Position numbers and translations under genes: made by a program
The notes under the pieces: generated by a model
Told to the model about the DNA's origin: nothing
Database searches by the model: none
Seen by the model: only the letters and a program-made list of their open reading frames with translations
Shown here: piece after piece, positions 1 to 36,471 of the stretch
Layout: every line of letters begins with the position of its first letter
Position numbering within the stretch: position 1 is the stretch's first letter
Source of the DNA: an uncultured Acidobacteriota bacterium
GTDB taxonomy: Bacteria; Acidobacteriota; Polarisedimenticolia; J045
Direction of reading: 5' to 3'
DNA length: 64,000 bases
Assembly (NCBI GenBank): GCA_963702425.1
Contig: CAVPCQ010000017.1
Location: forward strand, 64,001-128,000

Positions 1-279
1 CTGGGCCTGCTGAAGGGCAGGCAACGCACGCCCGGTGCCCCGTGGCGCATCCGCGTGACGGCGGACGACCAGCGCCGGCTCACCGAGGTCGACGCGCCCG
101 CGGGCTGGCTCCCGCTCAAGGCTGCCGCCCTCGCCCTGGGTGTCAGCCAGCAGACGGTCTTGCACCAACTCAAGGGCGGGCAACTCGAGGGCGTCCGGGT
201 CCGGGTCCGAGCCCGATCGGCCTGGCGAATTCACGTCCCGTCAACGCGTTACCCATCACGGACGACGCTCTTCGACTGA
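1..279 (+). CDS. 3' end of a large serine recombinase-family gene (C-terminal HTH-like region); starts upstream of window
   Basis: Open from base 1: ...TPGAPWRIRVT...APAGWLPLKAAALALGVSQQTVLHQLKGGQL...LFD*, a C-terminus I recognise from recombinase-family proteins; followed by an attR-like junction. Confidence 0.6.
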   Translation: MGLLKGRQRTPGAPWRIRVTADDQRRLTEVDAPAGWLPLKAAALALGVSQQTVLHQLKGGQLEGVRVRVRARSAWRIHVPSTRYPSRTTLFD

Positions 280-289
280 GCGGTTTTCG

Positions 290-335
290 AGGTGACTGAG
301 TATGTGCGACACACCCCGCGCTGCTCGTCCCGCAT
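290..335 (+). other. attR-like junction of second LSR element, putative core CC at 316-317
   Basis: GAGT-ATG-TGC-GAC-AC-ACC-CC aligns with CAGT-ATG-AAT-GAC-GC-TCC-TT of the other element; IS91-like transposase sequence resumes at 316. Confidence 0.6.
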
Positions 336-480
336 GAAGATCCTGGCCCAGATCCACCCGCCCGACACGACCCGCGCGATTCTCGACTGCCTCGGGCTGG
401 CCTCCCGCGCCCCGCCCCGCGCGCCGGCCCGCGCCGAGCCGGACCCGCTCCCCTCTCCCGGCAACGCCGCGGCGGACTGA
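316..480 (+). pseudogene. IS91/ISCR-type transposase C-terminal tail
   Basis: PRCSSRMKILAQIHPPDTTRAILDCLGLASRAPP..., near-identical to 8535-8699 and 21207-21371. Confidence 0.8.
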
Positions 481-697
481 ACTCATCGACAAACGGCCCG
501 GCCCACGCGGATCCTGACAACCCGGAGGGCGGATCTCCGCCTCCACGGCGGCCCTCCGCGCGTCCCAGGCGGGCCCGATCGCCGCGACGCGCAACGCCCG
601 ACCACGGCCGGCCCCCGCGGCCGGCCGCTCCCCCATCCTGCCGGCCTGCGGCTACGCTCTCCGCCTCAGAATCCGCGACTTGAATCGCTTATCCTCT
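481..697 (+). repeat. IS91/ISCR 3' end module with oriIS-like terminus (copy 1)
   Basis: Ends GCTACGCTCTCCGCCTCAGAATCCGCGACTTGAATCGCTTATCCTCT about 217 bp after the transposase stop; resembles ISCR oriIS (TTGAA..TAT.C). Confidence 0.75.
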
Positions 698-766
698 GAG
701 GTTCAGGGCGTCCCCGAAGCGCTGGACGAAAGTCACGGCACCCCAGCGCGCGGCCCGAACCTTCCG
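698..766 (-). pseudogene. Short antisense IS91/ISCR transposase fragment cut just before the HUH motif
   Basis: Minus strand reads RKVRAARWGAVTFVQRFGDALNL, the motif preceding N-x-H-x-H in ISCR transposases. Confidence 0.7.
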
Positions 767-2892: not shown

Positions 2893-4865
2893 GGCTTGGC
2901 CCTCGTCTCCCGAACCACGACCACGCCTGCGTTGATCGAGGCGAGGGGGTCGCGAAGCGACAGCACCGCATCGCGCTTAGCGAGAGGGAGTACTGCCATC
3001 GCCAGCGTGAAGCTGCGAGAGACAACGAGCCGCCCGTCGGCGAAGGACACGTCCTGGGACACGCTGCCCACGTCGTTCGCGGCTTTGATTGCGCCGGGGT
3101 CGGACCATCCCGCAGCCGGCGGCAGCTCGATCTCGATCGTCTGACTCACGGTGCGCGGCAAGCCGGCGTAAGCCGAGCCTTCCGGCCCAGCGAGAGGCAC
3201 GGGCACGGAGCCCAAGTCCACGAATTCCCCCAGCGGCAGTGCGAGGAAGGAGCCGAATCGCCCCCACGGATTCGGACAGCGATACCCGTACGTGAATCGC
3301 CAGCGCAACTCGTCGACCGGCAGCACGTCGGTGACCTCGAGATTCTCGAAGGCGGGGCAGCGCTCCGCCGCACTCTCCAGCACCCACTCGCGCAGGTCGC
3401 GACCGCGAGCTGGCCGCCCCTCCTCATCGACGAATCTCGCGCGCAGGCTGCCTCCCATCGCAACCGCGACGGAGACCTCGAACCCCGCATCGGCGCGTCG
3501 CCAGGTCTCGTGCACGTCAGCGCGGTTGCGGTCAGGGCTGGGGGGCGGAACGCGGAGCAGCCCCGTGGTGCGGGGATCCATCGCCAGTCCGGCCGCCCCA
3601 TCCAGCGCGGGCGACAGGTCGAACGCTGAGTCCGGCTCCAGCGTCGCGTCGAACAGCCGGAGGCGACCGATCCCGGGGGCCTCGACGAGCGCCATCCCCG
3701 GGGCGGCGTCGCCCTTCCAGACGATGCCGACGATGGCGTGGTTGAACGCCTGGAAGGTCGGAAGATCCGGTGCGACGAAACCGTCTCGAGGGCTGATGAT
3801 CGCAATCGGAACCGCCTCGAGACCACGGGCGCGCAGCAACGCGAGCATGAGCGCGGTCTTGTCCTTGCAGTCCCCGAATCCGCGACTCAGTGTCGTCTCC
3901 GTCGGACGGGGCACCCACCCACCCCACCCGATACTGACGGCAAAGTACCGGATGGATCGCGCGATCCGCCCCGCGGCGCCGATCGTCGCGACCTGGTCGG
4001 TCGGAAGCTCCTTGACCAGCCGATCGATGCTGGCGTTCCTCTCCATCGCGGGCCGGGCGAGTGTCGCGAGCCAGCCGGCAACTCCCCCCCACGTCGAAAA
4101 GCGGGGCTCGCCGTTCTCCGGGATGGGCTCCAGGGTCATCGCGAGCCGCGGCGGAGCGGGGACCCACCCGCCGCTCGAGGCGGCACGCTGCGCGCGCACG
4201 TCGACGAAGCGCCATGTTCCGCCCGCGCTCTCGCCGGCCGGTCCAGGATTGCGTCCCTCCCCCACGGTCGATAGCACGCGCCATCCACGATGCGTCTCGA
4301 CGTCGACCTGGAATACGTCGACCGGCCAGGGTCCTTGCACGCGCAGGAGGTCCTGCGGCCAGTCCGACGCACTTTCGTAGCGGTACTGAACGGCGAAGAC
4401 CGTACCGGGCACGGCATCAGGGGGCGCAAGAGAAAGTAGCTCCGTATCGTCGAGTTCCATGACGTTGCCGAGGGACCGGAGGGTGCCATCCTCCTCGTCG
4501 AACGTCTCGACCCGACCCGACGGGCGCATGACCCAGCCCTTTACCTTGCTGTAGCGGACGAATGACGAGCGGTGGAGATCGACGCGTGCGGCGTCCTCCC
4601 CGTCGCGCGTGAGCACCTTGACCGCGAACCGGCGCACGCAGGTGCGCCCGCCATCGGAGACCACTTCACATCGGTGGTGATCGAGAAGAACGACGGCATC
4701 ATCTGTGGCGTGATGCGCTGCGCCTGCGGCGTCGAATTGCAGCGGGACCCAGTCCGGCATGGTTGCGGCGCGAGCGGACAGGCCAAGTACTTCCAGCAGA
4801 ACAGCCAGCGTGAGGAAGCTTGCCAGCCTTGCGGCGGACGATGGACTACCCACTCCGCGATCCAT
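2889..4865 (-). CDS. DUF3857 and transglutaminase-domain exported protein
   Basis: Signal peptide; IRYFAV, GFGDCKDKT, FNHAIV, FDAT (Cys-His-Asp triad). Confidence 0.85.
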   Translation of the reverse strand: MDRGVGSPSSAARLASFLTLAVLLEVLGLSARAATMPDWVPLQFDAAGAAHHATDDAVVLLDHHRCEVVSDGGRTCVRRFAVKVLTRDGEDAARVDLHRSSFVRYSKVKGWVMRPSGRVETFDEEDGTLRSLGNVMELDDTELLSLAPPDAVPGTVFAVQYRYESASDWPQDLLRVQGPWPVDVFQVDVETHRGWRVLSTVGEGRNPGPAGESAGGTWRFVDVRAQRAASSGGWVPAPPRLAMTLEPIPENGEPRFSTWGGVAGWLATLARPAMERNASIDRLVKELPTDQVATIGAAGRIARSIRYFAVSIGWGGWVPRPTETTLSRGFGDCKDKTALMLALLRARGLEAVPIAIISPRDGFVAPDLPTFQAFNHAIVGIVWKGDAAPGMALVEAPGIGRLRLFDATLEPDSAFDLSPALDGAAGLAMDPRTTGLLRVPPPSPDRNRADVHETWRRADAGFEVSVAVAMGGSLRARFVDEEGRPARGRDLREWVLESAAERCPAFENLEVTDVLPVDELRWRFTYGYRCPNPWGRFGSFLALPLGEFVDLGSVPVPLAGPEGSAYAGLPRTVSQTIEIELPPAAGWSDPGAIKAANDVGSVSQDVSFADGRLVVSRSFTLAMAVLPLAKRDAVLSLRDPLASINAGVVVVRETRAKP

Positions 4866-5029: not shown

Positions 5030-5147
5030 CCCGTCACCCCCGACCCCGGGACCTGGCCCCACGCCTCCGGGTGACCGGCCTCCCGGCGCTCGGTCTCCCG
5101 ACCCCGGCGGCCGCTACCTCTCCTGGGCCGAGTTGCTGCGCCGAGTC
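5030..5147 (+). pseudogene. IS91/ISCR transposase fragment left of LSR insertion (5'-truncated)
   Basis: Encodes ...GRYLSWAELLRRV, homologous to 14860-14978; left boundary approximate. Confidence 0.75.
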
Positions 5148-5196
5148 TTGGACCGACCACCCGACTGCACCCGGTACCCGCGATGCGGTGCGTCGG

Positions 5197-5481
5197 ATGC
5201 GGATCACGCATCCGTTCCACCCGCTGCGGGGGCGGGAGTTCGTCGTGCTGGACGAGCGCCGCAACCGCCACGGCGAGCGGGTCTGGTACCGCGCTGAGGA
5301 CGGCTCGGCGCGGACGGTCCCGCGGGGCTGGACGAGCCTGGGGGAGGCCGATCTCTTCGCGACGATTTCGGCCGGGCGGGCCTGGTTTCGGTGGGACGAC
5401 CTGCGGCGGCTGGTGGCGTTGATCGGGGAGCTGCGGGAGGGGCTGGGCCCGGGGGACGCGGGGGGAGGGGGTGTCAAGTGA
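5197..5481 (+). CDS. DUF5372/Y4bD-like small protein (likely true start supplied by right end after circularisation)
   Basis: RITHPFHPLRGREF...ERVWY...TVPRGWTSL motif; no clear RBS before 5197. Confidence 0.7.
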   Translation: MRITHPFHPLRGREFVVLDERRNRHGERVWYRAEDGSARTVPRGWTSLGEADLFATISAGRAWFRWDDLRRLVALIGELREGLGPGDAGGGGVK

Positions 5482-5595
5482 ATTTCGTCCATATTGTCTG
5501 GAGTATTATGCTCGTAGCGGTCGGGGGCGCCACATCCGATCGGGCCTTGATCGGTCCAATACCGCGCATCAGAGCGATAACTGGCACAAGGCCCA

Positions 5596-5623
5596 TGGAC
5601 ACGGTCTTTGATGTGTGCATAAT
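5596..5623 (+). promoter_or_regulatory. Putative sigma70 promoter for HTH-recombinase operon
   Basis: TGGACA-16 bp-CATAAT in an AT-richer patch, AGGAGG RBS before ATG 5659; conserved in copy 2. Confidence 0.45.
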
Positions 5624-5658
5624 GGTCCTGACACACGGCGACGACCCAGGAGGAGACC

Positions 5659-6123
5659 ATGGCCGCACCGAGCGACGACTCCAAGCGCCGCGAGCTGGCC
5701 CGCCGCGGGGCCCTGCACCCCCACGCCGCGCAGGTCACGGACCCGCTCTTCGCGCGCGAGCCGTTCTTCGACCGCCGCGACGCGGTGCAGGTCAAGTACG
5801 AGATGCTGCGCAGCGTGCGAGCCGAGGGCCGTCCGGTGAGCCAGGCGGCGGCGCAGTTCGGCTTCTCGCGCCCGACCTTCTACGAGGCGCGAGCGGCCTT
5901 CGAGCGCGCCGGTCTGCCGGGTTTGCTGCCGGCGAAGAAAGGGCCGAAGCGCGCGCACAAGCTCTCGGCGGAGGTCCTGGCCTTCATCGACCGGCAGCTC
6001 GACGCCCGGCCGGCGCCGACCATGGAGGCACTCAGCGCGCGGATCCACGAGCACTTCGGCCGGTCGGTCCATCCCCGCAGCATCCGGCGCGCCCTGCTGC
6101 GCCGCACAAAAAAAAACCCGTAG
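5659..6123 (+). CDS. Helix-turn-helix protein of LSR element
   Basis: FFDRRDAVQVKYEMLR...VSQAAAQFGFSRPTFY...GLPGLLPAKKGPK; strong RBS. Confidence 0.85.
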   Translation: MAAPSDDSKRRELARRGALHPHAAQVTDPLFAREPFFDRRDAVQVKYEMLRSVRAEGRPVSQAAAQFGFSRPTFYEARAAFERAGLPGLLPAKKGPKRAHKLSAEVLAFIDRQLDARPAPTMEALSARIHEHFGRSVHPRSIRRALLRRTKKNP

Positions 6124-6410
6124 ACCCGCGCCCACCGACGTCCGGTCTCGCCGCGCACTACGAGCGGCTGCGGGAGGGTGTGCTCGGCGGCGACCGCCGG
6201 CCGTCGATCGGCGAGACGATCGTCCGTGGCCAGGGACTGTGGGCCTTCATCGCGCTCGCCGCGGCCGAGGCGCCGAGCGGCACGCCACCGCGCGTGGTCA
6301 CGGGATCGAGCGGCGCTCTGCCGGCACCGGCGGTGGCCGAGCGGGGCGCGCTGCTCGCGGCGTGGGCCGAGCTCGTCGTCGCCGTCGTGCAGCGCCCGGA
6401 GGTCTCATGA
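6108..6410 (+). CDS. Small ORF in the -1 frame after an A9 run, coupled (ATGA) to the recombinase
   Basis: KKKPVDPRPPTSGLAAHYERLR...PEVS*; no well-placed start codon; same in copy 2. Confidence 0.55.
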   Translation, partial: KKKPVDPRPPTSGLAAHYERLREGVLGGDRRPSIGETIVRGQGLWAFIALAAAEAPSGTPPRVVTGSSGALPAPAVAERGALLAAWAELVVAVVQRPEVS

Positions 6411-8500
6411 CCGAGGCCACGCCACAGAAGGTCGCCGCGACCCACCTGGCGCGCCAGGCCTTCCTCTACGTCCGCCAGTCGACGCTGCGCCAGGTGGTCG
6501 AGAATCCGGAGAGCACGCGCCGGCAGTACGCGCTGCGCGAGCGGGCCAGCGCGCTGGGCTGGCGGGCCGAGCAGATCGTCGTGATCGACTGCGATCTCGG
6601 TCGTTCGGGCGCGACGGCCGAGCGCGAGGGCTTCCAGCGGCTGGTCGCCGAGGTCGGGATGGGGCGGGCCGGGATCGTGCTCGGTCTCGAGGTTTCCCGC
6701 CTGGCCCGCAACTCCACCGACTGGCACCGCCTGCTCGAGATCTGCGCACTGACCGAGACGCTGATCCTCGACGAGGACGGCCTGTACGATCCGACGCAGT
6801 ACAACGACCGTTTGCTGCTCGGCTTGAAGGGCACGCTCTCGGAGGCCGAGCTGCACCTGCTGCGCGCGCGGATGCGCGGGGGTCTGCTGGCCAAGGCCCG
6901 CCGCGGCGAGCTGGGCCTCGGTCTGCCGGTCGGCCTGGTCTATGACGAGCTGGGGCGCGTCGTGCTGCATCCCGACGCGCAGGTGCGCGAGACCCTGGCG
7001 CTGTTCTTCCGCACCTTTCAGCGCACCGGGGCGGCTTGTGCGACGGTCAAGTATTTCTCGACGGAGCAGATCCCTTTCCCCGCGCCGACCCGCCCGGGGA
7101 GTCGCTCGGCGCAGGTCGTGTGGGGTCGGCTCAACCTCACGCGGGCCGTCAGCCTGCTGCACAACCCGCGCTACGCCGGGGCCTTCGCCTACGGCCGGCG
7201 CCGCGCGCGGCGGCAGCCCGACGGCCGCTTCCAGACCACGCGGGTACCGCGCGACCAATGGCTCGTGCTGCGCCTCGAGGCGCACCCGGGCTACATCGCG
7301 TGGGACGAGTTCGAGCGCAACCAGGAGCGGCTCGCGGCCTCGGCCCGGGCCTACGGGCTCGACCGCCGCGACGGCCCGCCGCGCGAAGGCCCGGCGCTGC
7401 TCCAGGGGCGCGTGCTCTGCGGCCGCTGCGGCGCGCGGATGACGGTCCGCTACCATCAGCGACGCGGCCAACTCGTGCCGGACTACGTCTGCTGTATCCG
7501 GACGCTGCAACACCGCGACCCGCCGTGCCAGGTCCTGCCCGGCGGCGCGGTCGACCGCGCGATCGGGCGTCTGATCGTCACGACGCTGACGCCCTTCGCC
7601 CTCGAGCTGACGCTCGCCGTCCAGGCCGAGCTCGAAACCCGCCTCGACGAGGCCGACCGGCTGCGCGGCCAGCAGATCGAACGCGCCCTGCACGAGGCCG
7701 AGCTGGCCCGCCGCCGCTACCTGCAGGTCGATCCGACGCATCGTCTCGTCGCCGCCTCGCTCGAGGCCGACTGGAATGACCGCCTGCGCGCGGTCGCCGA
7801 GACGCGCGAGCGCGTCGAGCACCAGCGCGACGCCGACCGCGGCGCTTTCGACGAGCAGACCCGGCAGCGGATCCGCGACCTCGCCGCCGACGTCCCGGCC
7901 GTCTGGGACGATCCCGCCACACCGCCGCGCGAGCGCAAGCGGATCCTCGGTCTGCTGCTCGCGGACGTCACGCTGGCCCGGCAGGACGACGAGATCACGC
8001 TCGCGGTCCGCTTCCGCGGCGGCGCGACGACGACGCTTCGCGTCCCGCTCCGGATCGGTCCCTGGCGCGGGCGGAAGACCCATCCCCAGGTCGTCGCACG
8101 GGCCGCGACGCTGCTCGCCTCCCACACCGCCGGCGAGGTCGCCGCGCGACTCAACGCGGAGGGCTTCACCTCCGGGGCCGGCCTCCCTTTCAAGCCGGAC
8201 ACCGTCGAATGGATGGGCCGGCACTACGGGCTGACCAGCCGACGCGACCACCTGCGTGCCGCCGGCCACCTCACCGCCGTCGAGCTCGCCGCACGGCTCC
8301 GCGTCAGCGTCGCCCGAGTCGGCTGCTGGCGTGCCGAGGGCCGGCTCACGGGGACGCGCTGCAACCAGAAAGACTGGCTCTACGACCCGATCGAGCGGCA
8401 GTCAGCGTGGATCCGGGAGCGTGCAGCGTGCGAAGATCGACGCCTCGACAGGCCGCGCGAGAACCGCACGATCACAGCGGCGACACGGGGTGCAGTATGA
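6407..8500 (+). CDS. Large serine recombinase (resolvase, recombinase, Zn-ribbon, coiled-coil and HTH regions)
   Basis: YVRQST catalytic motif, DLGRSG, SRLARN, LHNPRYAG, CGRCG..C..C; GGAGG RBS; stop lies within the attP arm. Confidence 0.93.
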   Translation: MTEATPQKVAATHLARQAFLYVRQSTLRQVVENPESTRRQYALRERASALGWRAEQIVVIDCDLGRSGATAEREGFQRLVAEVGMGRAGIVLGLEVSRLARNSTDWHRLLEICALTETLILDEDGLYDPTQYNDRLLLGLKGTLSEAELHLLRARMRGGLLAKARRGELGLGLPVGLVYDELGRVVLHPDAQVRETLALFFRTFQRTGAACATVKYFSTEQIPFPAPTRPGSRSAQVVWGRLNLTRAVSLLHNPRYAGAFAYGRRRARRQPDGRFQTTRVPRDQWLVLRLEAHPGYIAWDEFERNQERLAASARAYGLDRRDGPPREGPALLQGRVLCGRCGARMTVRYHQRRGQLVPDYVCCIRTLQHRDPPCQVLPGGAVDRAIGRLIVTTLTPFALELTLAVQAELETRLDEADRLRGQQIERALHEAELARRRYLQVDPTHRLVAASLEADWNDRLRAVAETRERVEHQRDADRGAFDEQTRQRIRDLAADVPAVWDDPATPPRERKRILGLLLADVTLARQDDEITLAVRFRGGATTTLRVPLRIGPWRGRKTHPQVVARAATLLASHTAGEVAARLNAEGFTSGAGLPFKPDTVEWMGRHYGLTSRRDHLRAAGHLTAVELAARLRVSVARVGCWRAEGRLTGTRCNQKDWLYDPIERQSAWIRERAACEDRRLDRPRENRTITAATRGAV

Positions 8501-8510
8501 ATGACGCTCC

Positions 8511-8699
8511 TTCGCTCTGGATGCCCTCCGCTGTCCGCGCTGCTCGTCCCGCATGAAGATCCTGGCCCAGATCCACCCGCCCGACACGACCCGCGCGATT
8601 CTCGACTGCCTCGGGCTGGCCTCTCGCGCCCCGCCCCGCGCGCCGGCCCGCGCCGAGCCCGACCCGCTCCCCTTTCCCGGCCTCGCCGCGGCGGACTGA
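8511..8699 (+). pseudogene. IS91/ISCR transposase C-terminal tail right of LSR insertion
   Basis: FALDALRCPRCSSRMKILAQIHPP...* continues RYLSWAELLRRV in frame once the element is removed. Confidence 0.85.
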
Positions 8700-8916
8700 A
8701 CTCCTGCACGAACGCCCCGGCCCACGCGGGTCCTGACCACCCGAAGGGCCGCACTCCGCCTCCACGGCGGCCCTCCGCGCGTCCCATGCGGGCCCGAGCG
8801 CCGCGACGCGCGGCGCCCGAACGCGGCCCGCCCCCGCGGCCTGCCGCTCCCCCATCCCGCAGGTCCGCGGCTAAGCGCTCCGCCTCAGAATCCGCGGCTT
8901 GAATCGCTTATCCTCT
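8700..8916 (+). repeat. IS91/ISCR 3' end module with oriIS-like terminus (copy 2)
   Basis: Ends CCGCCTCAGAATCCGCGGCTTGAATCGCTTATCCTCT. Confidence 0.75.
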
Positions 8917-9657
8917 CCGCTTTTCCGCCGGCTGCACCTCGCCAATGCACCGCGCGTGTGGCGGGAGCTGGCTGATCGCGCCGAACGCGAACAGTGGTCG
9001 TACCACGACTTCCTCAGCGCGCTCATCACCGGCGAGATTGCACACCGGCAGCAGACCCGCGTCCAACGCCTCGTCCGGCGTGCGCGCTTTCCGTATCTCA
9101 AGACGATCGACGACTTCGACTTCTCTCGGCAGACGGCGCTGCGCCCCAACCAACTGGGCTCATTTCTCTCGCCGGAGTTTGTTTCAGACGGCCGCTCCTT
9201 GGTCCTGCGCGGCAGGTCCGGCCGCGGCAAGACCCACCTGGCGATTGCAATCGCATACAAGGCAATCCAGAACGGCTTCGATGCGTACTTCGTGACCGCC
9301 GCCTCGCTGATCGACGATCTCTCCCGCGCCTCTGATGAGAAGCGGCTTGAGGCGGCTCTGCCGACCTACACGCACCCCGCTGTACTCGTCGTGGATGAAC
9401 TCGGCTACCTGACCTACTCCAACGACGCCGCCAATGTGCTGTACCACGTCGTCAACAACCGCTACCTGAAGCACCGCTCCATGATCTTCACGACGAACAA
9501 GCCCCTCGACGCATGGGGCGCCGTACTCCACGACAACGACCTCGCCACCGCGATCCTCGACCGGGTCCTCGAGCGGGGCCGGGCCCTCGTCCTGGACGGT
9601 CCATCTCACCGGACCATGCACCTCGGCCTTGACGACCCGACGGCCCCTGTGGCATAA
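8917..9657 (+). pseudogene. istB: IS21 helper ATPase, 5'-clipped by the oriIS end
   Basis: RARFPYLKTIDDFDF, GRSGRGKT Walker A, LVVDELGY, AILDRVL; no istA upstream. Confidence 0.85.
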
Positions 9658-14426: not shown

Positions 14427-14536
14427 GGCTCGTTCCCTCCCCGGGGCTGACAGCTTACGGCGGATACCGCGCTCCGCGCAGGATGGTGTGTGACGCCGGT
14501 CGCACGCGAGCTTACGGACTCGTTAGCATGCGGGTC

Positions 14537-14978
14537 GACGCGGCGGTGCTGGAAGGCCCCCGATCGGCAGCGGCTCGAGCGGCTTTGCCGTTACGTCGCC
14601 CGACCGCCCCTCGCCAGCGAGCGGCTCTCCCGGCTCGAGGACGGCCGCCTGCTCTACCGGCTCAAGCGCCGCTGGCGCGACGGCACGACGGCGCTCGTCT
14701 TCGAGCCGCTCGAATTGATCGAGCGGCTCGCCGCGCTGGTGCCGCCGCCGCGCCGGCACCTCGTCCGCTACCACGGGGTCCTCGCCCCCGCCTCCGCGCT
14801 GCGCCCGTGGATCGTGCCCCATCCGCCCACCGAGGACGGGATCCCCGCCGACGACGTCACATCCAAGCCGGCACCTCCGGCACCTGGCCTCACGTCGCCG
14901 GGTGCGCGGCCTCCCGGCGCACGGTCTCCCGACCCCCGCGGCCGCTACCTCTCCTGGGCCGAGTTACTGCGCCGAGTG
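14537..14978 (+). pseudogene. IS91/ISCR-type (single-Tyr) transposase fragment, 5'-truncated
   Basis: DRQRLERLCRYVARPPLASERL...LKRRWRDGTT...LAALVPPPRRHLVRYHGVLAP...RYLSWAELLRRV. Confidence 0.9.
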
Positions 14979-15027
14979 TTGGACCGACCACCCGACTGCA
15001 CCCGGTACCCGCGATGCGGTGCGTCGG

Positions 15028-15312
15028 ATGCGGATCACGCATCCGTTCCACCCGCTGCGGGGGCGGGAGTTCGTCGTGCTGGACGAGCGCCGCAACCGCC
15101 ACGGCGAGCGGGTCTGGTACCGCGCTGAGGACGGCTCGGCGCGGACGGTCCCGCGGGGCTGGACGAGCCTGGGGGAGGCCGATCTCTTCGCGACGATTTC
15201 GGCCGGGCGGGCCTGGTTTCGGTGGGACGACCTGCGGCGGCTGGTGGCGTTGATCGGGGAGCTGCGGGAGGGGCTGGGCCCGGGGGACGCGGGGGGAGGG
15301 GGTGTCAAGTGA
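15028..15312 (+). CDS. DUF5372/Y4bD-like protein, copy 2
   Basis: Same as 5197-5481. Confidence 0.7.
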   Translation: MRITHPFHPLRGREFVVLDERRNRHGERVWYRAEDGSARTVPRGWTSLGEADLFATISAGRAWFRWDDLRRLVALIGELREGLGPGDAGGGGVK

Positions 15313-15488
15313 ATTTCGTCCATATTGTCTGGAGTATTATGCTCGTAGCGGTCGGGGGCGCCGCAGCCGATCGGGCCTTGATCAGCCGAATGCCGCGCAT
15401 CAGAGCGATAATGGCACAAGGCCCATGGACACGGTCTTTGATGTGTGCATAATGGTCCTGACACACGGCGACGACCCAGGAGGAGACC

Positions 15489-15953
15489 ATGGCCGCACCG
15501 AGCGACGACTCCAAGCGCCGCGAGCTGGCCCGCCGCGGGGCGCTGCACCCCCACGCCGCGCAGGTCACGGACCCGCTCTTCGCGCGCGAGCCGTTCTTCG
15601 ACCGCCGCGACGCGGTGCAGGTCAAGTACGAGATGCTGCGCAGCGTGCGGGCCGAGGGCCGTCCGGTGAGCCAGGCGGCGGCGCAGTTCGGCTTCTCGCG
15701 CCCGACCTTCTACGAGGCGCGAGCGGCCTTCGAGCGCGCCGGTCTGCCGGGTTTGCTGCCGGCGAAGAAAGGGCCGAAGCGCGCGCACAAGCTCTCGGCG
15801 GAGGTCCTGGCCTTCATCGACCGGCAGCTCGACGCCCGGCCGGCGCCGACCATGGAGGCACTCAGCGCGCGGATCCACGAGCACTTCGGCCGGTCGGTCC
15901 ATCCCCGCAGCATCCGGCGCGCCCTGCTGCGCCGCACAAAAAAAAACCCGTAG
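15489..15953 (+). CDS. HTH protein, copy 2
   Basis: Identical protein to 5659-6123; A9 run at 15938-15946. Confidence 0.85.
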   Translation: MAAPSDDSKRRELARRGALHPHAAQVTDPLFAREPFFDRRDAVQVKYEMLRSVRAEGRPVSQAAAQFGFSRPTFYEARAAFERAGLPGLLPAKKGPKRAHKLSAEVLAFIDRQLDARPAPTMEALSARIHEHFGRSVHPRSIRRALLRRTKKNP

Positions 15954-18370
15954 ACCCGCGCCCACCGACGTCCGGTCTCGCCGCGCACTACGAGCGGCTG
16001 CGGGAGGGTGTGCTCGGCGGCGACCGCCGGCCGTCGATCGGCGAGACGATCGTCCGTGGCCAGGGACTGTGGGCCTTCATCGCGCTCGCCGCGGCCGAGG
16101 CGCCGAGCGGCACGCCACCGCGCGTGGTCACGGGATCGAGCGGCGCTCTGCCGGCACCGGCGGTGGCCGAGCGGGGCGCGCTGCTCGCGGCGTGGGCCGA
16201 GCTCGTCGTCGCCGTCGTGCAGCGCCCGGAGGTCTCATGACCGAGGCCACGCCACAGAAGGTCGCCGCGACCCACCTGGCGCGCCAGGCCTTCCTCTACG
16301 TCCGCCAGTCGACGCTGCGCCAGGTGGTCGAGAATCCGGAGAGCACGCGCCGGCAGTACGCGCTGCGCGAGCGGGCCAGCGCGCTGGGCTGGCGGGCCGA
16401 GCAGATCGTCGTGATCGACTGCGATCTCGGTCGTTCGGGCGCGACGGCCGAGCGCGAGGGCTTCCAGCGGCTGGTCGCCGAGGTCGGGATGGGGCGGGCC
16501 GGGATCGTGCTCGGTCTCGAGGTTTCCCGCCTGGCCCGCAACTCCACCGACTGGCACCGCCTGCTCGAGATCTGCGCGCTGACCGAGACGCTGATCCTCG
16601 ACGAGGACGGCCTGTACGATCCGACGCAGTACAACGACCGTTTGCTGCTCGGCTTGAAGGGCACGCTCTCGGAGGCCGAGCTGCACCTGCTGCGCGCGCG
16701 GATGCGCGGGGGTCTGCTGGCCAAGGCCCGCCGCGGCGAGCTGGGCCTCGGTCTGCCGGTCGGCCTGGTCTATGACGAGCTGGGGCGCGTCGTGCTGCAT
16801 CCCGACGCGCAGGTGCGCGAGACCCTGGCGCTGTTCTTCCGCACCTTTCAGCGCACCGGGGCGGCTTGTGCGACGGTCAAGTATTTCTCGACGGAGCAGA
16901 TCCCTTTCCCCGCGCCGACCCGCCCGGGGAGTCGCTCGGCGCAGGTCGTGTGGGGTCGGCTCAACCTCACGCGGGCCGTCAGCCTGCTGCACAACCCGCG
17001 CTACGCCGGGGCCTTCGCCTACGGCCGGCGCCGCGCGCGGCGGCAGCCCGACGGCCGCTTCCAGACCACGCGGGTACCGCGCGACCAATGGCTCGTGCTG
17101 CGCCTCGAGGCGCACCCGGGCTACATCGCGTGGGACGAGTTCGAGCGCAACCAGGAGCGGCTCGCGGCCTCGGCCCGGGCCTACGGGCTCGACCGCCGCG
17201 ACGGTCCGCCGCGCGAAGGCCCGGCGCTGCTCCAGGGGCGCGTGCTCTGCGGCCGCTGCGGCGCGCGGATGACGGTCCGCTACCATCAGCGACGCGGCCA
17301 ACTCGTGCCGGACTACGTCTGCTGTCTCCGGACGCTGCAACACCGCGACCCGCCGTGCCAGGTCCTGCCCGGCGGCGCGGTCGACCGCGCGATCGGGCGT
17401 CTGATCGTCACGACGCTGACGCCCTTCGCCCTCGAGCTGACGCTCGCCGTCCAGGCCGAGCTCGAAACCCGCCTCGACGAGGCCGACCGGCTGCGCGGCC
17501 AGCAGATCGAGCGCGCCCTGCACGAGGCCGAGCTGGCCCGCCGCCGCTACCTGCAGGTCGATCCGACGCATCGTCTCGTCGCCGCCTCGCTCGAGGCCGA
17601 CTGGAATGACCGCCTGCGCGCGGTCGCCGAGACGCGCGAGCGCGTCGAGCACCAGCGCGACGCCGACCGCGGCGCTTTCGACGAGCAGACCCGGCAGCGG
17701 ATCCGCGACCTCGCCGCCGACGTCCCGGCCGTCTGGGACGATCCCGCCACACCGCCGCGCGAGCGCAAGCGGATCCTCGGTCTGCTGCTCGCGGACGTCA
17801 CGCTGGCCCGGCAGGACGACGAGATCACGCTCGCGGTCCGCTTCCGCGGCGGCGCCACGACGACGCTTCGCGTCCCGCTCCGGATCGGTCCCTGGCGCGG
17901 GCGCAAGACCCATCCCCAGGTCGTCGCACGGGCCGCGACGCTGCTCGCCTCCCACACCGCCGGCGAGGTCGCCGCGCGACTCAACGCGGAGGGCTTCACC
18001 TCCGGGGCCGGCCTCCCTTTCAAGCCGGACACCGTCGAATGGATGGGCCGGCACTACGTGGCAGTTCCGGCGATCGTGATCACCCGATCCGGGATCGTGA
18101 TCACTGATTCCGCTGATGGTGATCACGCGTCGGAGCGAAGCGACGGTCGGTTCGTTCTAGTTTCGCCTCCTGTCAAGCCTCGGCAGATTCTAACGCGGGA
18201 TCCCGATCGGTTGAAGGCTGGGTGGCAGCAGGGCCTGTGGGGCCTGTGGGCGGCGCGGCCGTTCGCGCCGTCCAAGGGGCGGTGGGAAACGCGACGTCAT
18301 GCGTTTTCCACGGACCCGCCAGGATCCATAGGCCGTCGCGCGTCAGCGCGAGTTCGGAGCGCAGCGACGA

Positions 18371-19126
18371 TCATCGGGTCTTGTCTCCGCCACGGATCGG
18401 ACTGCGGAGCTCGCGTTGCGAGGGCCCTTTGAGATCGATCTTGTGCGCGCGGTGGACCAGGCGATCCAGGATGGCGTCTGCGAGCATCGCTTCGCCGATC
18501 ACCTCGTGCCAGGCTTTGATCGGGAGCTGACCGGCCAGGAGTGTCGAGCCACGCTCGGCGCGGTCCTCGATCACCTCGAGCAGGTCGCGGCGCCCGGCGT
18601 CCTGGAGCGGCGAGAGCAGCCAGTCGTCGATCACCAGCAGATCGAGCTTGGCCAGTCGGGCCAGCAGGCGGCCGGACGAGCCGTCGCCGCGGGCGACGGC
18701 CAGGGCCTGGATCAGGCGCGGGGCGCGGACGTACTGGGCGGTGAAGCCCTTGCGGCAGGCGCGTTCGCCGAAGGCGCAGGCCAGGTAGGACTTTCCCGAT
18801 CCGGTCGGGCCGGTGATGATCAGGTTGTGCCGCTCGGTGATCCAGGTGCAGGTGCCGAGCGCGAGCAGCACCTGGCGATCCAGGCCGCGCCCGGGCTTGA
18901 CCTCGACGTCCTCGAGTGCGGCGTCGTAGCGCAGCCGCGCCAGCTTGAGCCGCCGCGTCAGCTTGCGCTGCTCGCGCTGGGTCCACTCGTGGTCGACCAG
19001 CAGACCGAAGCGCTCTTCGAAGCTGAGCGCGACGTGTGTGGTGTCGTGTTGCTGCCGGTCGAAGGCCTCGGCCATGCCGTGCAGGTTCATCGCCTGGAGC
19101 TTGTCGATCGTGGGTTGGGTCAGCAT
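18371..19126 (-). CDS. istB: IS21 helper ATPase
   Basis: MLTQPTIDKL..., GPTGSGKS, LLVIDDW, ADAILDRLVH. Confidence 0.93.
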   Translation of the reverse strand: MLTQPTIDKLQAMNLHGMAEAFDRQQHDTTHVALSFEERFGLLVDHEWTQREQRKLTRRLKLARLRYDAALEDVEVKPGRGLDRQVLLALGTCTWITERHNLIITGPTGSGKSYLACAFGERACRKGFTAQYVRAPRLIQALAVARGDGSSGRLLARLAKLDLLVIDDWLLSPLQDAGRRDLLEVIEDRAERGSTLLAGQLPIKAWHEVIGEAMLADAILDRLVHRAHKIDLKGPSQRELRSPIRGGDKTR

Positions 19127-20685
19127 TCGGTCTCCTGGGACACGTAGTAGTCCGCGCCACGGATGTTGGGATGGCCTTGCGGGGGGGGCGACAGAGCCAA
19201 CGGCTCGTCCGCGATCGGGACACGGTCGAGACCGGCTTGCAGGATGTTGTGCACGGTCTTGAAGCTCACGGCGGCGAGGCGTTCGGCCCGCGCACAGGCC
19301 GCCTCGAGACGGCCGTCGCCGTGCTTCTTGCCGAGACGCATCAGACCCAGACAGGCCCGATAGCCCTGCTCGGGGTGGGGCCTCGAGCGCAGGATCTGCT
19401 CGACCACGCGCCCCGTGGCCGGGCCGCTCTTCTCGGCCCAGTGGATCAGCCGCGAGGGCGTCCACTCGGCGTGGGCACGATGCGACGCGGGCATGTGCTC
19501 GGGGTAGGTCGAGCTCTGGCCGCGGCCCCGCAACCGCCGGTGCGACGTGATCCGGCGGCCGTTGTGGAAGACTTCGACGACGTCGGCGGTGAGGCGGGCG
19601 TCGACCTGCTCGTACAGCAGCGTGTACGGCACGCTGTAGGTGTTGTATTCGATCGCGATGTGGTAGTCGATGCTGACCCGGCAGGTCTTCCACTGGCCCA
19701 GCTCGTAGCGCCGCGGTGGCAGCGGCTTGAGTGCGGGCCGGTCGAGCTGCTCGAACAGCTCGCGGCGGCTGACACCCAGGGCGCGGATCCGCCGCTCGTT
19801 GAGGTGTCCGGTCAACTCCCGAATCGCCGCGTTCAGCTCGTGCAGGCTGAAGAAGATGCGATGCCGCAGCACCGCCAGGATCCAGCGCTCCGCCAGCAGC
19901 ACCCCCGCTTCGACCTTGGCCTTGTCCTTCGGCCGATAGCTCCGTGCTGGGATCACCGCGGTCCCGTAATGCGCCGCCATCTCGCCGTAGCTGCGGTTGA
20001 CCTCCGGCTCGTAACGACACGGCTTCGTCACCCCGCTCTTCAAGTTGTCGGGGACCAGCATCTCCGGGGCTCCGCCCCAGGCCTCAAACATGTGGACGTG
20101 TGCCCGGATCCACGGCTCCAGCTCCTGCGATTCCACCGCCTCGGCGTAGGTCTCACTGCTCGCCCCCAGCACCCCGACGAACAACTCCACTTCGCGCACG
20201 GCGCCCGTCGCGGGGTCAACGAGCCGCGGCTTGCTCCCGGCGAAGTCGACGAAGGCCTTCTCACCCGCCCGATGGACCTGCCGCATGCTCGGCTTGAGCC
20301 GCGCAGCGAAGCGTCGATACAACTCGCAGAACTGGCTGTAGCGATAGTGATTCACCGGGTGCGCCGCGGCGTACTCGCCCCACAGCAGCTGCAGCGTCAC
20401 GTGCTTGCGCCGCAGCTCCTGATGCACCCAGCTCCAGTCGGGGGGCAGCCGCTCGACCTCCACGCCCGGGGCCGGCGGGAACAGCCGCACCGTCAACGCC
20501 GCGTCGTCCAACTCCTCCGGCAGCGGCCAGGACAGACCGGCCGCCTGGGCGCGCTGGACGTAGGCGCAGACCGTACCCGTGCCGATCCCTGCCGACCGCG
20601 CGATCTCACGGTGCGTCAGCCGGCACTCCCATTTCAGTCGCAGGATCTCGCGCAACTTCCTCATCAGCAGCCTCTCGCCAGCCAT
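19120..20685 (-). CDS. istA: IS21 DDE transposase
   Basis: MRKLREILRL, YSQFCELY, GEKAFVDFAG, VPDNLKSGV, PKDKAKVE, HPNIRGADYY. Confidence 0.95.
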   Translation of the reverse strand: MAGERLLMRKLREILRLKWECRLTHREIARSAGIGTGTVCAYVQRAQAAGLSWPLPEELDDAALTVRLFPPAPGVEVERLPPDWSWVHQELRRKHVTLQLLWGEYAAAHPVNHYRYSQFCELYRRFAARLKPSMRQVHRAGEKAFVDFAGSKPRLVDPATGAVREVELFVGVLGASSETYAEAVESQELEPWIRAHVHMFEAWGGAPEMLVPDNLKSGVTKPCRYEPEVNRSYGEMAAHYGTAVIPARSYRPKDKAKVEAGVLLAERWILAVLRHRIFFSLHELNAAIRELTGHLNERRIRALGVSRRELFEQLDRPALKPLPPRRYELGQWKTCRVSIDYHIAIEYNTYSVPYTLLYEQVDARLTADVVEVFHNGRRITSHRRLRGRGQSSTYPEHMPASHRAHAEWTPSRLIHWAEKSGPATGRVVEQILRSRPHPEQGYRACLGLMRLGKKHGDGRLEAACARAERLAAVSFKTVHNILQAGLDRVPIADEPLALSPPPQGHPNIRGADYYVSQETEC

Positions 20686-20738
20686 CGGCCCCTCCGCAAA
20701 AGGGCCAGATTGACCGCGTTCGCTGCCGACGCCTACCA

Positions 20739-20894
20739 GTGATCACGATGCCCGGAATCCCTGATCACGATCCCGGAATCCCTGATCAGGATCCCGGAAT
20801 CCGCGATCACGATCCCCGGAACCGGTGATCACGATCCCGGAATCCCTGATCACGATGCCCCGGAATGAGCGATCACGATGGTCCGGAACCGCCA
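20739..20894. repeat. About seven tandem 21-23-bp subterminal repeats of IS21
   Basis: Unit (c/g)TGATCACGAT(g/c)CCGGAATCC, no spacers. Confidence 0.9.
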
Positions 20895-21182
20895 ACTACG
20901 GGCTGACCAGCCGACGCGACCACCTGCGTGCCGCCGGCCACCTCACCGCCGTCGAGCTCGCCGCACGGCTCCGCGTCAGCGTCGCCCGAGTCGGCTGCTG
21001 GCGTGCCGAGGGCCGGCTCACGGGGACGCGCTGCAACCAGAAAGACTGGCTCTACGACCCGATCGAGCGGCAGTCAGCGTGGATCCGGGAGCGTGCAGCG
21101 TGCGAAGATCGACGCCTCGACAGGCCGCGCGAGAACCGCACGATCACAGCGGCGACACGGGGTGCAGTATGAATGACGCTCC

Positions 21183-21371
21183 TTCGCTCTGGATGCCCTC
21201 CGCTGTCCGCGCTGCTCGTCCCGCATGAAGATCCTGGCCCAGATCCACCCGCCCGACACGACCCGCGCGATTCTCGACTGCCTCGGGCTGGCCTCTCGCG
21301 CCCCGCCCCGCGCGCCGGCCCGCGCCGAGCCCGACCCGCTCCCCTTTCCCGGGAACGCCGCCGCGGACTGA
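21183..21371 (+). pseudogene. IS91/ISCR transposase C-terminal tail
   Basis: FALDALRCPRC...*, in frame with 14537-14978 after element removal. Confidence 0.85.
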
Positions 21372-21577
21372 GCTCATCGACGAACGCCCGGGCCCTCGCG
21401 GGTCGTGCCAACCCGGAGGGCGGGACTCCGCCTCCGCGGCCGACCTCCGCGCATCCCTTTCGGCCACTTCGCCGCGACGCGCAGCGCCCGACCACGGCCG
21501 GCCCCCGCGACCCCTTCCCCGGCAGGCCCGCGGCTACGCTCTCCGCCTCAGAATCCGGCTTGAATCGCTTATCCTCT
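21355..21577 (+). repeat. IS91/ISCR 3' end module (copy 3), direct repeat of 24831-25053
   Basis: Ends GAATCCGGCTTGAATCGCTTATCCTCT. Confidence 0.8.
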
Positions 21578-24157: not shown

Positions 24158-24349
24158 TCAGTCGCTGGACCAGTCGGGGTCGGGCTCGAACAGCGCCGCC
24201 GTAGTCCGCCGCGGCGGAGCCACGGGCGGCGGCCGGGCCGACAGCCCGAGGCACTCCAGGATCGCTCCGGCCGTGTCGGGCGGATGAATCGCGGCAAGGA
24301 TTCTCATCGGTCCGTGGCACCGCGGGCACTCCAGGACATCCACGGCGAA
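24158..24349 (-). pseudogene. Divergent IS91/ISCR transposase C-terminal tail
   Basis: FAVDVLECPRCHGPMRILAAIHPPDTAGAILECLGLSARPPP. Confidence 0.85.
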
Positions 24350-24830
24350 GGAGCGTCATTCATACTGCACCCCGTGTCGCCGCTGTGATCGTGCGGTTCT
24401 CGCGCGGCCTGTCGAGGCGTCGATCTTCGCACGCTGCACGCTCCCGGATCCACGCTGACTGCCGCTCGATCGGGTCGTAGAGCCAGTCTTTCTGGTTGCA
24501 GCGCGTCCCCGTGAGCCGGCCCTCGGCACGCCAGCAGCCGACTCGGGCGACGCTGACGCGGAGCCGTGCGGCGAGCTCGACGGCGGTGAGGTGGCCGGCG
24601 GCACGCAGGTGGTCGCGTCGGCTGGTCAGCCCGTAGTGCCGGCCCATCCATTCGACGGTGTCCGGCTTGAAAGGGAGGCCGGCCCCGGAGGTGAAGCCCT
24701 CCGCGTTGAGTCGCGCGGCGACCTCGCCGGCGGTGTGGGAGGCGAGCAGCGTCGCGGCCCGTGCGACGACCTGGGGATGAGTCTTCCGCCCGCGCCAGGG
24801 ACCGATCCGGAGCGGCACGCGAAGCGTCGT
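24348..24830 (-). mobile_element. LSR element copy 3, inverted, only recombinase 3' end and attR left
   Basis: Reverse complement of ~8030-8512; attR ...ATGAATGACGCTCC-TT-CGCCGTGGATG. Confidence 0.9.
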
Positions 24831-25053
24831 ACGCCGCCGCGGACTGAGCTCATCGACGAACGCCCGGGCCCTCGCGGGTCGTGCCAAGCCGGAGGGCGGG
24901 ACTCCGCCTCCGCGGCCGACCTCCGCGCATCCCTTTCGGCCACTTCGCCGCGACGCGCAGCGCCCGACCACGGCCGGCCCCCGCGACCCCTTCCCCGGCA
25001 GGCCCGCGGCTACGCTCTCCGCCTCAGAATCCGGCTTGAATCGCTTATCCTCT
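24831..25053 (+). repeat. IS91/ISCR 3' end module (copy 4)
   Basis: Near-identical to 21355-21577 (one substitution noticed). Confidence 0.85.
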
Positions 25054-27823: not shown

Positions 27824-28180
27824 TGTCCCTCGCCACAACCCCGTCATCCGCTGGCACCGCGAGGGCTTCGGGCGGTACTGGCGCTGGACACCGAGGCGCC
27901 ACGCTGGACGACCGAGCACACGAGCCGACATCCGCGCCCTCGTGCACCGGATGGCCGCCAAGAAGCCAGCGTGGCGAGCGCCGCGCATCCACGGTGAGAT
28001 ACAGAAGTGTGGCCGCGAGTTCTCCGTACGCACCGTCTCGCGCACCATGCCCCGGCGCCGGGCCAATCCCGACGAACGGCAACGATGGCGCACCTTTCTC
28101 GCCAATTACCTCGCTACCTGATCCTCGACCGGGACGCCAAGTACGGCCACGAGGTCCTCGCCACAATCCGGCGCGCCATC
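27824..28180 (+). pseudogene. Internally deleted rve-element remnant
   Basis: TGTCCCTCGCCACAACC left end joined to VIRWHREGF... and RYLILDRDAKYGHEV. Confidence 0.7.
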
Positions 28181-28492
28181 GCGGCCCTGCAGGCCACGGT
28201 CGGGTGACGCTAAGGCCGACATCAACTTCCTCCTGACGGTGATGGGGAGGCGGTTCTTCGAGGCGACGCTGCCAGCGCTGGTCGCGGCGATCGAGAAGAT
28301 GAACCAGAGCATCGACCGCCCGCACCAAGGGCTCGGCAGTAAGGTCCTCACCCTGAGCGCCTCCGAGCAGCCGAAGGGCGGCGAGGTGGCCGTCAACGAA
28401 CGACTCGGCGGGCTGCTGCGCAGCTACCGACGGTCGGCCTGACGGCCAAACACATCGCGAGCACTGACCTCTTGACGTGGACCAGGGCCACC

Positions 28493-35333: not shown

Positions 35334-35689
35334 CGAGGGCCTCGTTGCCCGAACCTGGATCGTCCCTGAGAGGTCGTCGTGCGCGCGCGAGCACAGGGGC
35401 CGGCCCGAGGACGTTGCCCCCACCCGGAGGGCCACGGGATGATAGCGCTTCCGCGAATCCCGTCAACTGTAGGGACTCACGCGTCGATCGCTCGGCGGTG
35501 GACGCTCGTGCGGTGAATCAGCCGCGCCTGATGGGCGATCACGGCGGCCGTTTCCACGATGGTTCCGTCCGGCTCCGCGCTTGCGCCTGCGTTGCTGCTA
35601 CTGTGTCCACCTGCGGCCGTCTTACGGCTCTCATGCGTCACCGGACGACGGAGGCCCCCGAAGCGACACCTTCGCAGAACAACGTCACC

Positions 35690-36320: not shown

Positions 36321-36471
36321 CACGGCGGGCGGGCACGCTTCCGGCGCCTCGCCGGCCCTCCGCCGGCACCGTGTGTAACGAATCCCGGGGGATCGGGGTG
36401 GTTGGGGCAGGAGGACACCGGATACACCCACCTCTCAGCGACGATGTCGCTGTTGCCTCGGAGGACTCGCA

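Follow-up and report, generated by a model that had tools for sequence, protein, structure and literature searches.

A 64,000-nucleotide stretch of the genome of an uncultured Acidobacteriota bacterium (hereafter, the window; C17:64001-128000 in a 5.1 Mb assembly of 42 contigs that is 91% complete and 5.85% contaminated) contains a compact mobile element that splits transposase genes of the IS91 type at one and the same codon. The evidence presented below indicates, with good confidence, that this 3,365-bp unit, denoted element A, is an integrative element with its own large serine recombinase (LSR) and an attB site inside IS91 transposase genes, and that it represents one branch of a family spread across phyla. 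The genome holds three full copies of element A (A1, or copy 1; A2, or copy 2; and A0, the third full copy) and one partial copy, all at the codon following the slash in the transposase motif WAELLRRV/F, along with a second element, denoted B.

Boundaries and attachment sites of element A

Copy 1 (window 5148-8512) is bounded by the dinucleotide TT at either end (Table 1). As read from the sequence, its left flank (...RYLSWAELLRRV) and right flank (F-ALDALRCPRCSSRMKILAQ...) belong to one common frame, which continues, after the right-end ...TCC and the TT, as F-ALDALRCPRCSS...; the insertion point is the Phe codon of the WAELLRRV/F motif of an IS91-type transposase gene, and the element is inserted in the sense orientation, co-directionally with that gene. 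The ends have the structure GGGTGCAGT-N11-TCC-TT and TT-GGA-N11-ACTGCACCC and, when joined, yield an imperfect palindrome, GTGCAGT-N14-TT-N14-ACTGCAC, the predicted attP site. In agreement with the organization of LSR systems, this attP consists of imperfectly inverted halves on either side of a 2-base crossover, which recurs in attB, attL and attR; the attP arms are kept across 38 distinct relatives of the element. The initial annotation, made from the sequence alone, had already proposed the TT crossover and the palindromic joined-end site and had maintained that taking out copy 1 or 2 restores the transposase frame; our reading of the ends is the same, the frame runs on across copy 1, and natural empty sites are uninterrupted.

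In this genome, the recombinase genes are always found inside IS91 sequence, which might suggest that they are cargo, or a resolution system, of an IS91-derived transposon. This possibility appears extremely unlikely, however, given that the boundaries are precise to the base, the joined ends form a palindromic site, the transposase frame that is interrupted by the element is continuous at the natural empty sites, and the same four-gene unit resides in unrelated DDE and IS66 genes elsewhere (see below).

Copies, empty sites and independent integration

Comparison of the window with itself aligns 5043-8231 with 14873-18062 (99.2% identity over 3,191 columns), 8223-8916 with 20895-21577 (93.2%), and 8019-8636 with 24840-24224 in the inverted orientation. 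Copy 2 (14979-21184), the ends of which match those of copy 1 to the base, is equivalent to copy 1 with a 2.8-kb IS21 inserted in the recombinase gene, which is cut at about residue 607; this insertion was absent from the initial annotation. The inverted partial copy stops at the same TT, next to a differing host that reads FAVDVLECPRCHGPM; A0 (C17:48229-51592), outside the window, is 97.6% identical and has the same junctions. Thus, the boundary that the initial annotation had assigned to the three window copies is indeed common to them, including the partial copy with its distinct host, although the latter copy runs over 24348-24840 by BLAST rather than ending at 24830.

The genome also contains the vacant counterparts of these sites. 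A natural uninterrupted site, ...gagtg-TT-cgctctgg..., is located at C17:2357 and is 97.1% identical to the right flank of copy 1; four more such sites were found on C19, C32 and C18, for a total of at least five in the genome. The IS91 3' fragments that carry empty attB sites map to C17:2285-2761, C19:~4650-4802, C32:~99900-100070, and C18:~11237-11700 and ~20362-20530. A search for the element across the genome, which had been suggested as a check, detected no copy at an unrelated site and added the third full copy and the empty sites: all five DUF5372 matches are on C17 within IS91 fragments (three in element A and two in element B), and, with all these matches checked, no element copy was identified outside IS91 sequence in this assembly.

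The similarities between the copies of the element and those between their flanks are discordant. The element sequences are 99.6% (A1-A2) and 97.6% (A0-A1 and A0-A2) identical; by comparison, the right flanks are 90.3% identical for A1-A2, 99.2% for A0-A2, and 97.1% for A1 and the empty site. The partial copy is 98-100% identical to the others in its element part and sits in a host that is only 76-79% similar to the other hosts. In all, the hosts of the four copies differ by 1-24%, yet the junctions are the same to the base, which is beyond chance. This discordance indicates separate integrations into different IS91 copies, as originally proposed, rather than block copying, although recombination between copies after integration may be an alternative source of discordance.

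A different history would involve a single LSR integration, after which a composite of IS91 fragment, element and IS91 3' end was copied as a block, with the element hitch-hiking, by IS91 rolling-circle or one-ended transposition or by segmental duplication. This scenario is compatible with the presence of IS91 flanks at every copy, with the clustering of six occupied sites within 90 kb of one contig, and with the shared 3' end of the IS91 pieces (to 8916, 21577 and 699) combined with varying 5' truncation, as would result from abortive rolling-circle copying, which proceeds from a 3' origin. It is nevertheless improbable considering the discordant similarities, the mismatch between the partial copy and its host, the existence of empty sites, and the fact that relatives in unrelated metagenomes occupy this codon in IS91 genes that are themselves quite dissimilar. 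Likewise, the earlier suggestion that the element hitch-hikes on IS91 rolling-circle transposition finds no support because element and flank similarities are discordant, no element-plus-flank pair having matching similarity.

The host genes themselves are incomplete. Three Y2_Tnp matches exceed the Pfam cut-off, upstream of B1 (element B), copy 2 and A0, which, together with a full gene in a relative described here, corroborates the original assignment of the insertion to one codon of an IS91-type gene. All three matches are partial (profile positions 92-178), beginning at profile position 92 or later; therefore, there is no complete IS91 gene here, and the Pfam search accordingly found none with both ends and a Zn_Tnp_IS91 N-terminus in this assembly. 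The IS91 pieces of the assembly have a common 3' end, with a variable part of the 5' sequence remaining. The full gene is that at locus L028, where Zn_Tnp_IS91 and Y2_Tnp positions 1-179 (Pfam) lie upstream of the junction.

Adjacent to the cut-off of the partial copy, window 24831-25053 comprises a 223-bp IS91 3' end, 99.6% identical to 21355-21577, that begins exactly where the partial copy ends, near the transposase stop codon. The IS21-type element within copy 2 (IstB_IS21, E 4.4e-66; Mu-transpos_C_2/rve) contains an open 521-aa istA-type open reading frame (ORF), with about 9 bases (8223-8231) repeated on both sides of the element and with 21-22-bp repeat runs near one end (20741-20859).

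Element B and a second position in the IS91 gene

Element B (C17:61568-64317; 2,750 bp) is a distant element that also encodes DUF5372 and an LSR, with a CC core. Its site, which falls in the Pro codon of C-P-R-C, is 27 bp downstream of that of element A within one and the same gene, and the spacing between its arms and the core equals that of A. The recombinase of B is about 38% identical to its relatives and forms a long branch. The hosts of B carry an empty A site, and the hosts of A carry an empty B site; the IS91 gene thus offers two unrelated-looking attB positions, one for each element. A second copy of B occupies C17:36058-41365 (5,308 bp) and hence includes about 2.5 kb of extra DNA.

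Gene content and a candidate directionality factor

Element A encompasses, within about 3.3 kb, genes for a DUF5372 protein, a helix-turn-helix (HTH) protein, a small ORF product and the LSR, in this order, between ends of the form GTGCAnT-N14-core and core-N14-AnTGCAC; gene order and ends are those of the family of four-gene elements described in the next section. The prediction of an LSR in the initial annotation is borne out by the domain composition of the 697-aa protein: Pfam matches include Resolvase (PF00239, E 8.7e-21), Recombinase (PF07508) and Zn_ribbon_recom (PF13408). Residues R23, Q24 and S25, which place the nucleophilic serine in an R-x-S context, are invariant in 13 aligned relatives. 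The Recombinase domain, that is, DNA-binding domain 1 (DBD1), is followed by a zinc-ribbon DBD2 with an inserted coiled coil; in the AF2 (AlphaFold2) model (mean pLDDT 63), these regions correspond to strands 336-362, paired long helices 396-440 and 446-480, and strands 518-547.

The HTH ORF is 45-53% identical in relatives (E down to 1e-48), and its product resembles transposase HTH domains. A 310-aa ORF (5478-6410) was considered as an alternative gene and rejected: relatives conserve the overlapping HTH frame at 45-53%, compared to about 30-35% for the long frame, and an NCBIfam search with the long ORF gave no match. For the 94-aa small ORF, there was no Pfam or PHROG match, and for DUF5372, no NCBIfam or PHROG match and no relative in PDB (best E 0.27).

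In structural modeling, the LSR-DUF5372 complex scored 0.64 (runs 0.63, 0.73 and 0.64) versus 0.00 for the best control; among reference cases, 58 of 80 solved complexes but just 2 of 110 mismatched pairs attain that mark, and the alignments comprised 13 and 37 rows. At least 81% of the contacts are shared between the runs, with a partner pLDDT of at least 68. The modeled interface involves LSR residues 337-342, 393-413, 481-517 and 533-541, that is, in the AF2 model, the zinc-ribbon strands and the DBD2-proximal ends of helices 396-440 and 446-480, and not the hairpin tip. For verified directionality factors, the available part of one report describes predicted placement at the DBD2-coiled coil (DBD2-CC) junction, with binding seen there in one case (PMC12286644). 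The model thus supports, without demonstrating it, binding of DUF5372 to the recombinase. Because the modeled interface matches the place where directionality factors bind, DUF5372 can be proposed to be the excision (directionality) factor of the LSR, an assignment for which we consider the chances to be about even.

Table 1. Features of the window related to elements A and B and their IS91 hosts
Feature	Position	Strand	Remarks
Right end of element B, CC core at 316-317	1..317	+	
IS91 3' part following element B (92% identity with 8535-8916)	318..699	+	
IS91 transposase fragment to the left of copy 1, with ...WAELLRRV at its end	5043..5147	+	similarity to other IS91 copies begins at 5043
Core TT, attL of copy 1	5148..5149	+	
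Left attP arm, GGA-N11-ACTGCACCC	5150..5172	+	kept in relatives
DUF5372 gene, 93 aa, candidate recombination directionality factor	5200..5481	+	Pfam PF17342, E 6.4e-23; complex model
HTH protein gene, 154 aa, HTH_32/29/28/23	5659..6123	+	
Small ORF, 94 aa, position conserved; pNGR234a has an 88-aa coding sequence (CDS) there	6126..6410	+	
LSR gene, 697 aa	6407..8500	+	ATG overlaps small-ORF stop
Right attP arm, GGGTGCAGT-N11-TCC	8487..8510	+	overlaps LSR stop codon
Core TT, attR of copy 1, bases 1-2 of Phe codon	8511..8512	+	
IS91 3' part: transposase C-terminus (stop 8697-8699) and shared IS 3' end	8513..8916	+	
IS91 transposase fragment left of copy 2	14490..14978	+	Y2_Tnp profile positions 102-177 at 14559-14786
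Copy 2 left part: DUF5372, HTH, small ORF, LSR residues 1 to ~607	14979..18062	+	
IS21-type element in copy 2 LSR gene; istA 19120-20685, istB-type domain in ORF 18371-20020	18063..20894	-	
Copy 2 right part, ends with core TT 21183-21184	20895..21184	+	
IS91 3' part right of copy 2	21185..21577	+	
Diverged IS91 C-terminal coding part, FAVDVLECPRCHGPM..., adjoins partial copy	24224..24347	-	
Inverted partial copy, final 493 bp of element; LSR residues 542-697, 100% identical	24348..24840	-	

A family of related elements in transposase genes

Relatives of the window recombinase number in the thousands (all 8,000 of the 8,000 scored candidates), most of them on contigs about the size of the element; loci on contigs that stop at the element have no flank and were not counted. 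Among genome contigs, 549 of the 599 candidate stretches encode relatives, and 80 loci from many phyla were kept; among metagenome contigs, 382 of 449 were confirmed, and 80 loci were kept as a second, independent set. In addition, a plasmid collection contains family members at 787 places in 420 records, mostly rhizobial. The right ends of the relatives consist of GTGCAnT, 14 bases and TT, overlapping or located just past the recombinase stop, and the left ends, placed by this N14 spacing rule, mirror them. Both ends could be placed at 55 genome loci and 30 metagenome loci (L087, with a misplaced right end and an apparent length of 6,774, was left out of the end and target counts), with element lengths of 3.29-3.46 kb; the core is TT/TT at 46 of the 55 and 27 of the 30 loci, respectively.

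In silico removal of these elements restores an open frame, and in most cases, this frame encodes a transposase different from that in the window. The antisense motif [N/K]-x-x-x-E was restored at 39/55 and 21/30 loci: TT is the complement of bases 1-2 of an Asn or Lys codon that precedes the catalytic Glu of rve-type DDE transposases by four residues (for example, YDNAxxE, PQAKGRVE, PWQNPYVE and KGKVE). At the true left junctions, the antisense Glu codon was found in 71 of 86 cases, compared to 238 of 6,526 (3.6%) for control TT sites from the same flanks. For five of the seven DDE representatives, the Pfam rve domain ends (profile position 100-102 of 102) right at the junction, and rve matches 23 of the 54 right-flank ORFs. 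The sense-strand IS91 motif was restored at four of the 55 genome loci and one of the 30 metagenome loci.

The target preference follows the recombinase phylogeny. In a FastTree tree of 159 recombinases (rows shorter than 550 aa were excluded from the trees; the support values are local only), all 13 IS91-flanked rows, with flanks typed by tblastn against representatives, belong to one starred set of 16 rows that includes none of the 60 DDE-type rows, the remaining three having no usable flanks; therefore, IS91 targeting is a habit of one clade. In the three closest relatives of the window LSR (71, 64 and 60% identity), the right flank contains F..D..C..C. The window element does not show the antisense insertion at an [N/K]xxxE codon of DDE transposase genes; it is related to the elements that do and operates in a similar manner, but it belongs to a separate clade with a different target class. 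The IS91 specificity claimed initially therefore holds for this clade, whereas most of the larger family, including the repeats of strain NGR234 described below, targets DDE genes.

At one locus of the DDE clade (L095:3390-3459), the 68-base right flank, in antisense, resembles the IS91 N-terminal zinc-binding motif (...SCKGRDACPSCNAK). An 'IS91' label given to this locus was withdrawn, the match covering only 20 residues of a 68-base flank; if this reading is real, a DDE-clade recombinase would have a second type of site in IS91 genes. At two metagenome loci (L119 and L122), the element lies between pieces of two different types of transposase (SPQA... and ...NAACESF), as would be expected after recombination between element copies in different insertion sequences (ISs).

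The NGR234 repeat and variable attB sites

The initial annotation had likened the gene set to a repeat of Rhizobium NGR234. The set indeed matches on pNGR234a (33989-37258: DUF5372, HTH, 88-aa CDS and recombinase, the latter 52% identical to the window LSR), although the names y4bA-D could not be confirmed. On the two plasmids of this strain (Sinorhizobium fredii NGR234), one copy is broken and eight are full; each of the latter measures 3,322-3,323 bp, is bounded by TT, and splits a DDE transposase gene at K-x-x-x-E (RDKAKVE in five cases, TPQAKGRVE in two, RTKGKDE in one). The NGR234 repeat resembles element A in gene order, the 7-base arm followed by N14 and TT, the TT core, the similar size, and the location of every full copy in a transposase gene; it differs in being inserted antisense, at K-x-x-x-E in three kinds of DDE genes, whereas the window element lies in the sense orientation in a gene of IS91 (Y2/HUH-type), and in belonging to a separate LSR clade.

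This four-gene repeat is presumably the one named NGRIS-4. Perret et al. reportedly noted in 1997 that all NGRIS-4 copies in NGR234 lie in other ISs; if NGRIS-4 is the NGR234 repeat, this bias towards ISs was recognized early on. A literature search retrieved no papers on DUF5372 or NGRIS-4 and no description of LSR integration into transposase genes, and, to the extent covered by this search, there is no earlier account of the enzyme, its codon-level site, the IS91 branch or how widespread the family is; the supplementary enrichment tables of PMC10083194 may bear on this novelty.

The family extends beyond DDE and IS91 targets. On Rhizobium phaseoli Brasil 5 plasmid pRphaBra5c (2230-5615), a member is inserted antisense in IS66 tnpB, at the Lys codon of the conserved ...WDGSG.CLVAK... 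motif, which is not a DDE catalytic motif; this member is flanked by an annotated tnpB stub and an IS66 transposase gene.

The DNA sequences of the target sites differ substantially even for the same enzyme, in contrast to the highly conserved attP. Three of the NGR234 copies (L098, L100 and L106) are identical over 3,322 of 3,322 positions, and their attB sites share 20-23 of 42 bases; the recombinases of L082 and L083 are identical (679/679), with attB sites sharing 20 of 42 bases; and for L060 and L061 (694 of 696 residues identical), only 13 of 42 attB bases are shared. With identical recombinases, unlike DNA sites and the same codon position, site choice would not conform to a classical long specific attB; instead, it may involve a sparse code, or help from the HTH or DUF5372 protein.

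The same observations could be taken to mean that the LSR is a loose, multi-targeting enzyme that acts at many TT sites, with selection removing the insertions outside IS genes. The poor attB consensus of the DDE-targeting relatives and the 13-23 of 42 bases shared by the sites of identical or near-identical LSRs are in line with this explanation, and multi-targeting LSR clades are known from the available part of PMC10083194. Neutrality, however, leaves the exact codon unexplained: the excess of the Glu codon at true junctions over control TT sites was measured in flanks that are themselves largely IS sequence. Moreover, all six insertions in this genome are at one of two exact positions in one gene, and intergenic or accessory DNA should tolerate insertions as well, yet few loci lack a transposase motif. 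We therefore regard a loose LSR combined with selection as a doubtful explanation, with little probability attached to it.

Proposed mechanism and points against it

On the strength of these observations, integration of element A can be envisaged as follows. In an excised circle, the two ends would be joined in the imperfectly palindromic attP. The LSR would bring attP together with an attB in the coding region of an IS91-type (Y2, rolling-circle) transposase and, by analogy with established LSRs, cut both sites at the central TT and exchange strands; the expected outcome is a fixed orientation, TT at both junctions, and a transposase split into ...WAELLRRV / F..D...CP.C. The target codons are conserved, and therefore the same attB would recur in diverged IS91 copies; given this recurrence, one genome would have many landing sites, the loss of which costs the cell nothing. 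Other members of the family would integrate antisense at an Asn or Lys codon of DDE transposases, and at least one in IS66 tnpB. DUF5372, bound at the DBD2/coiled-coil junction, would act as the excision factor.

More broadly, these elements might constitute an undescribed, cross-phylum guild of 3.3-kb 'transposase-homing' LSR elements that use, as attB, the most conserved motif of the transposition genes of other elements (the DDE Glu region, the IS91 C-terminal motif and IS66 TnpB). We put this generalization forward tentatively, our confidence in it being slightly short of evenly balanced.

Several observations weigh against the interpretation offered here. The IS91 hosts in this assembly look like remnants rather than live IS91s. 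Only copy 1 has four open ORFs: the recombinase of copy 2 is broken by IS21, and in A0, the recombinase is intact, with two substitutions, and the HTH ORF is split over two frames. No circle joint, in which the right end leads back to the left end, was detected in four metagenome runs, all of which consist of contigs and would not reveal rare forms; in one of these runs (X5), contigs join 5143/5146 directly to 8511, and these joins show only uninterrupted IS91 sites, not excision. Within the family, there is no [N/K]xxxE motif at 16 of the 55 and 9 of the 30 restored sites; among these, 4 of the 16 and 1 of the 9 are IS91 sites, and others include doubtful left ends. The consensus of 42 distinct DDE-type attB sites is weak beyond TT: TC at -12/-11, which corresponds to the Glu codon, is accompanied by only a few bases with partial conservation, and the shared bases include C at -15, C at +3 and GG at +8/+9. 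Finally, the score of the LSR-DUF5372 complex reflects self-assessed model confidence, and confidence in the LSR model itself is modest.

Comparison with known systems and implications

Compared to the LSRs of phages and genomic islands (Bxb1, PhiC31, SPbeta, CcrAB and XisF), the window recombinase has the same domain set, and its system likewise includes a central dinucleotide, a palindromic attP and a small partner, DUF5372, that is modeled at the DBD2-CC junction; NCBIfam yields weak matches to XisF and CcrA, far under the cut-offs. Unlike those systems, element A is only 3.4 kb long, contains no phage or conjugation genes and has its attB in the transposase gene of another element, and in the DDE branch, a single recombinase uses very dissimilar attB sequences.

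Elements that land in other mobile elements are exemplified by the Tn5053/Tn402 'res hunters', IS1111-attC, and IS4321/IS5075 in Tn21 ends. A clade of tyrosine integrases, according to the available part of PMC10111431, targets late genes of prophages. With such elements, the family described here has in common a landing site in another mobile element, so that insertion does no harm to the host cell and the carrier takes its guest along; in contrast to them, it employs neither DDE, DEDD nor tyrosine recombinases, and it inactivates the coding sequence of the carrier's own transposase.

The use of several attB sequences by one recombinase is reminiscent of the multi-targeting LSRs (TndX/TnpX-like, DUF4368 clade), as described in the accessible part of PMC10083194. 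By contrast, Pfam reports no DUF4368 match for the window LSR, and the targets are one structural position of transposase genes rather than a short motif scattered over many gene families. Among the enriched LSR target genes named in the available portion of the main text of PMC10083194, there is no transposase.

Element A is a mobile element with its landing pad in the transposase gene of another element, for which attP and attB can be predicted at the level of single bases. Elements of the IS91/ISCR type spread accessory genes, and an LSR that splits their transposase is a natural tool and adds a layer of element-on-element parasitism. The family pattern accounts for genes annotated as 'recombinase family protein / DUF5372' beside transposase pseudogenes and for the breakage of metagenome assemblies into contigs of about 3-4 kb at these elements. 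The combination of a family-wide target rule with a loose attB poses a puzzle, that of one LSR with barely similar attB sites. If the interpretation is correct, the elements of the guild are natural inactivators of ISs, their integrases follow unusual, possibly tunable target rules, and DUF5372 gains a testable role.

Other repeats and genes in the window

An IstB-type ORF of 252 aa (window 8899-9657; E 1.7e-64) begins within the last bases of the IS91 3' part at copy 1. Further repeat families in the window, without a DUF5372 element, include 27841-29345, 45092-45619, the pair 29443-29729/38619-38904, and a 378-bp tandem pair at 32458-33200. The repeats at 28108-28170 and 29283-29345 translate as ...RYLILDRDAKYG..., which we take to be a motif of rve-type transposases.

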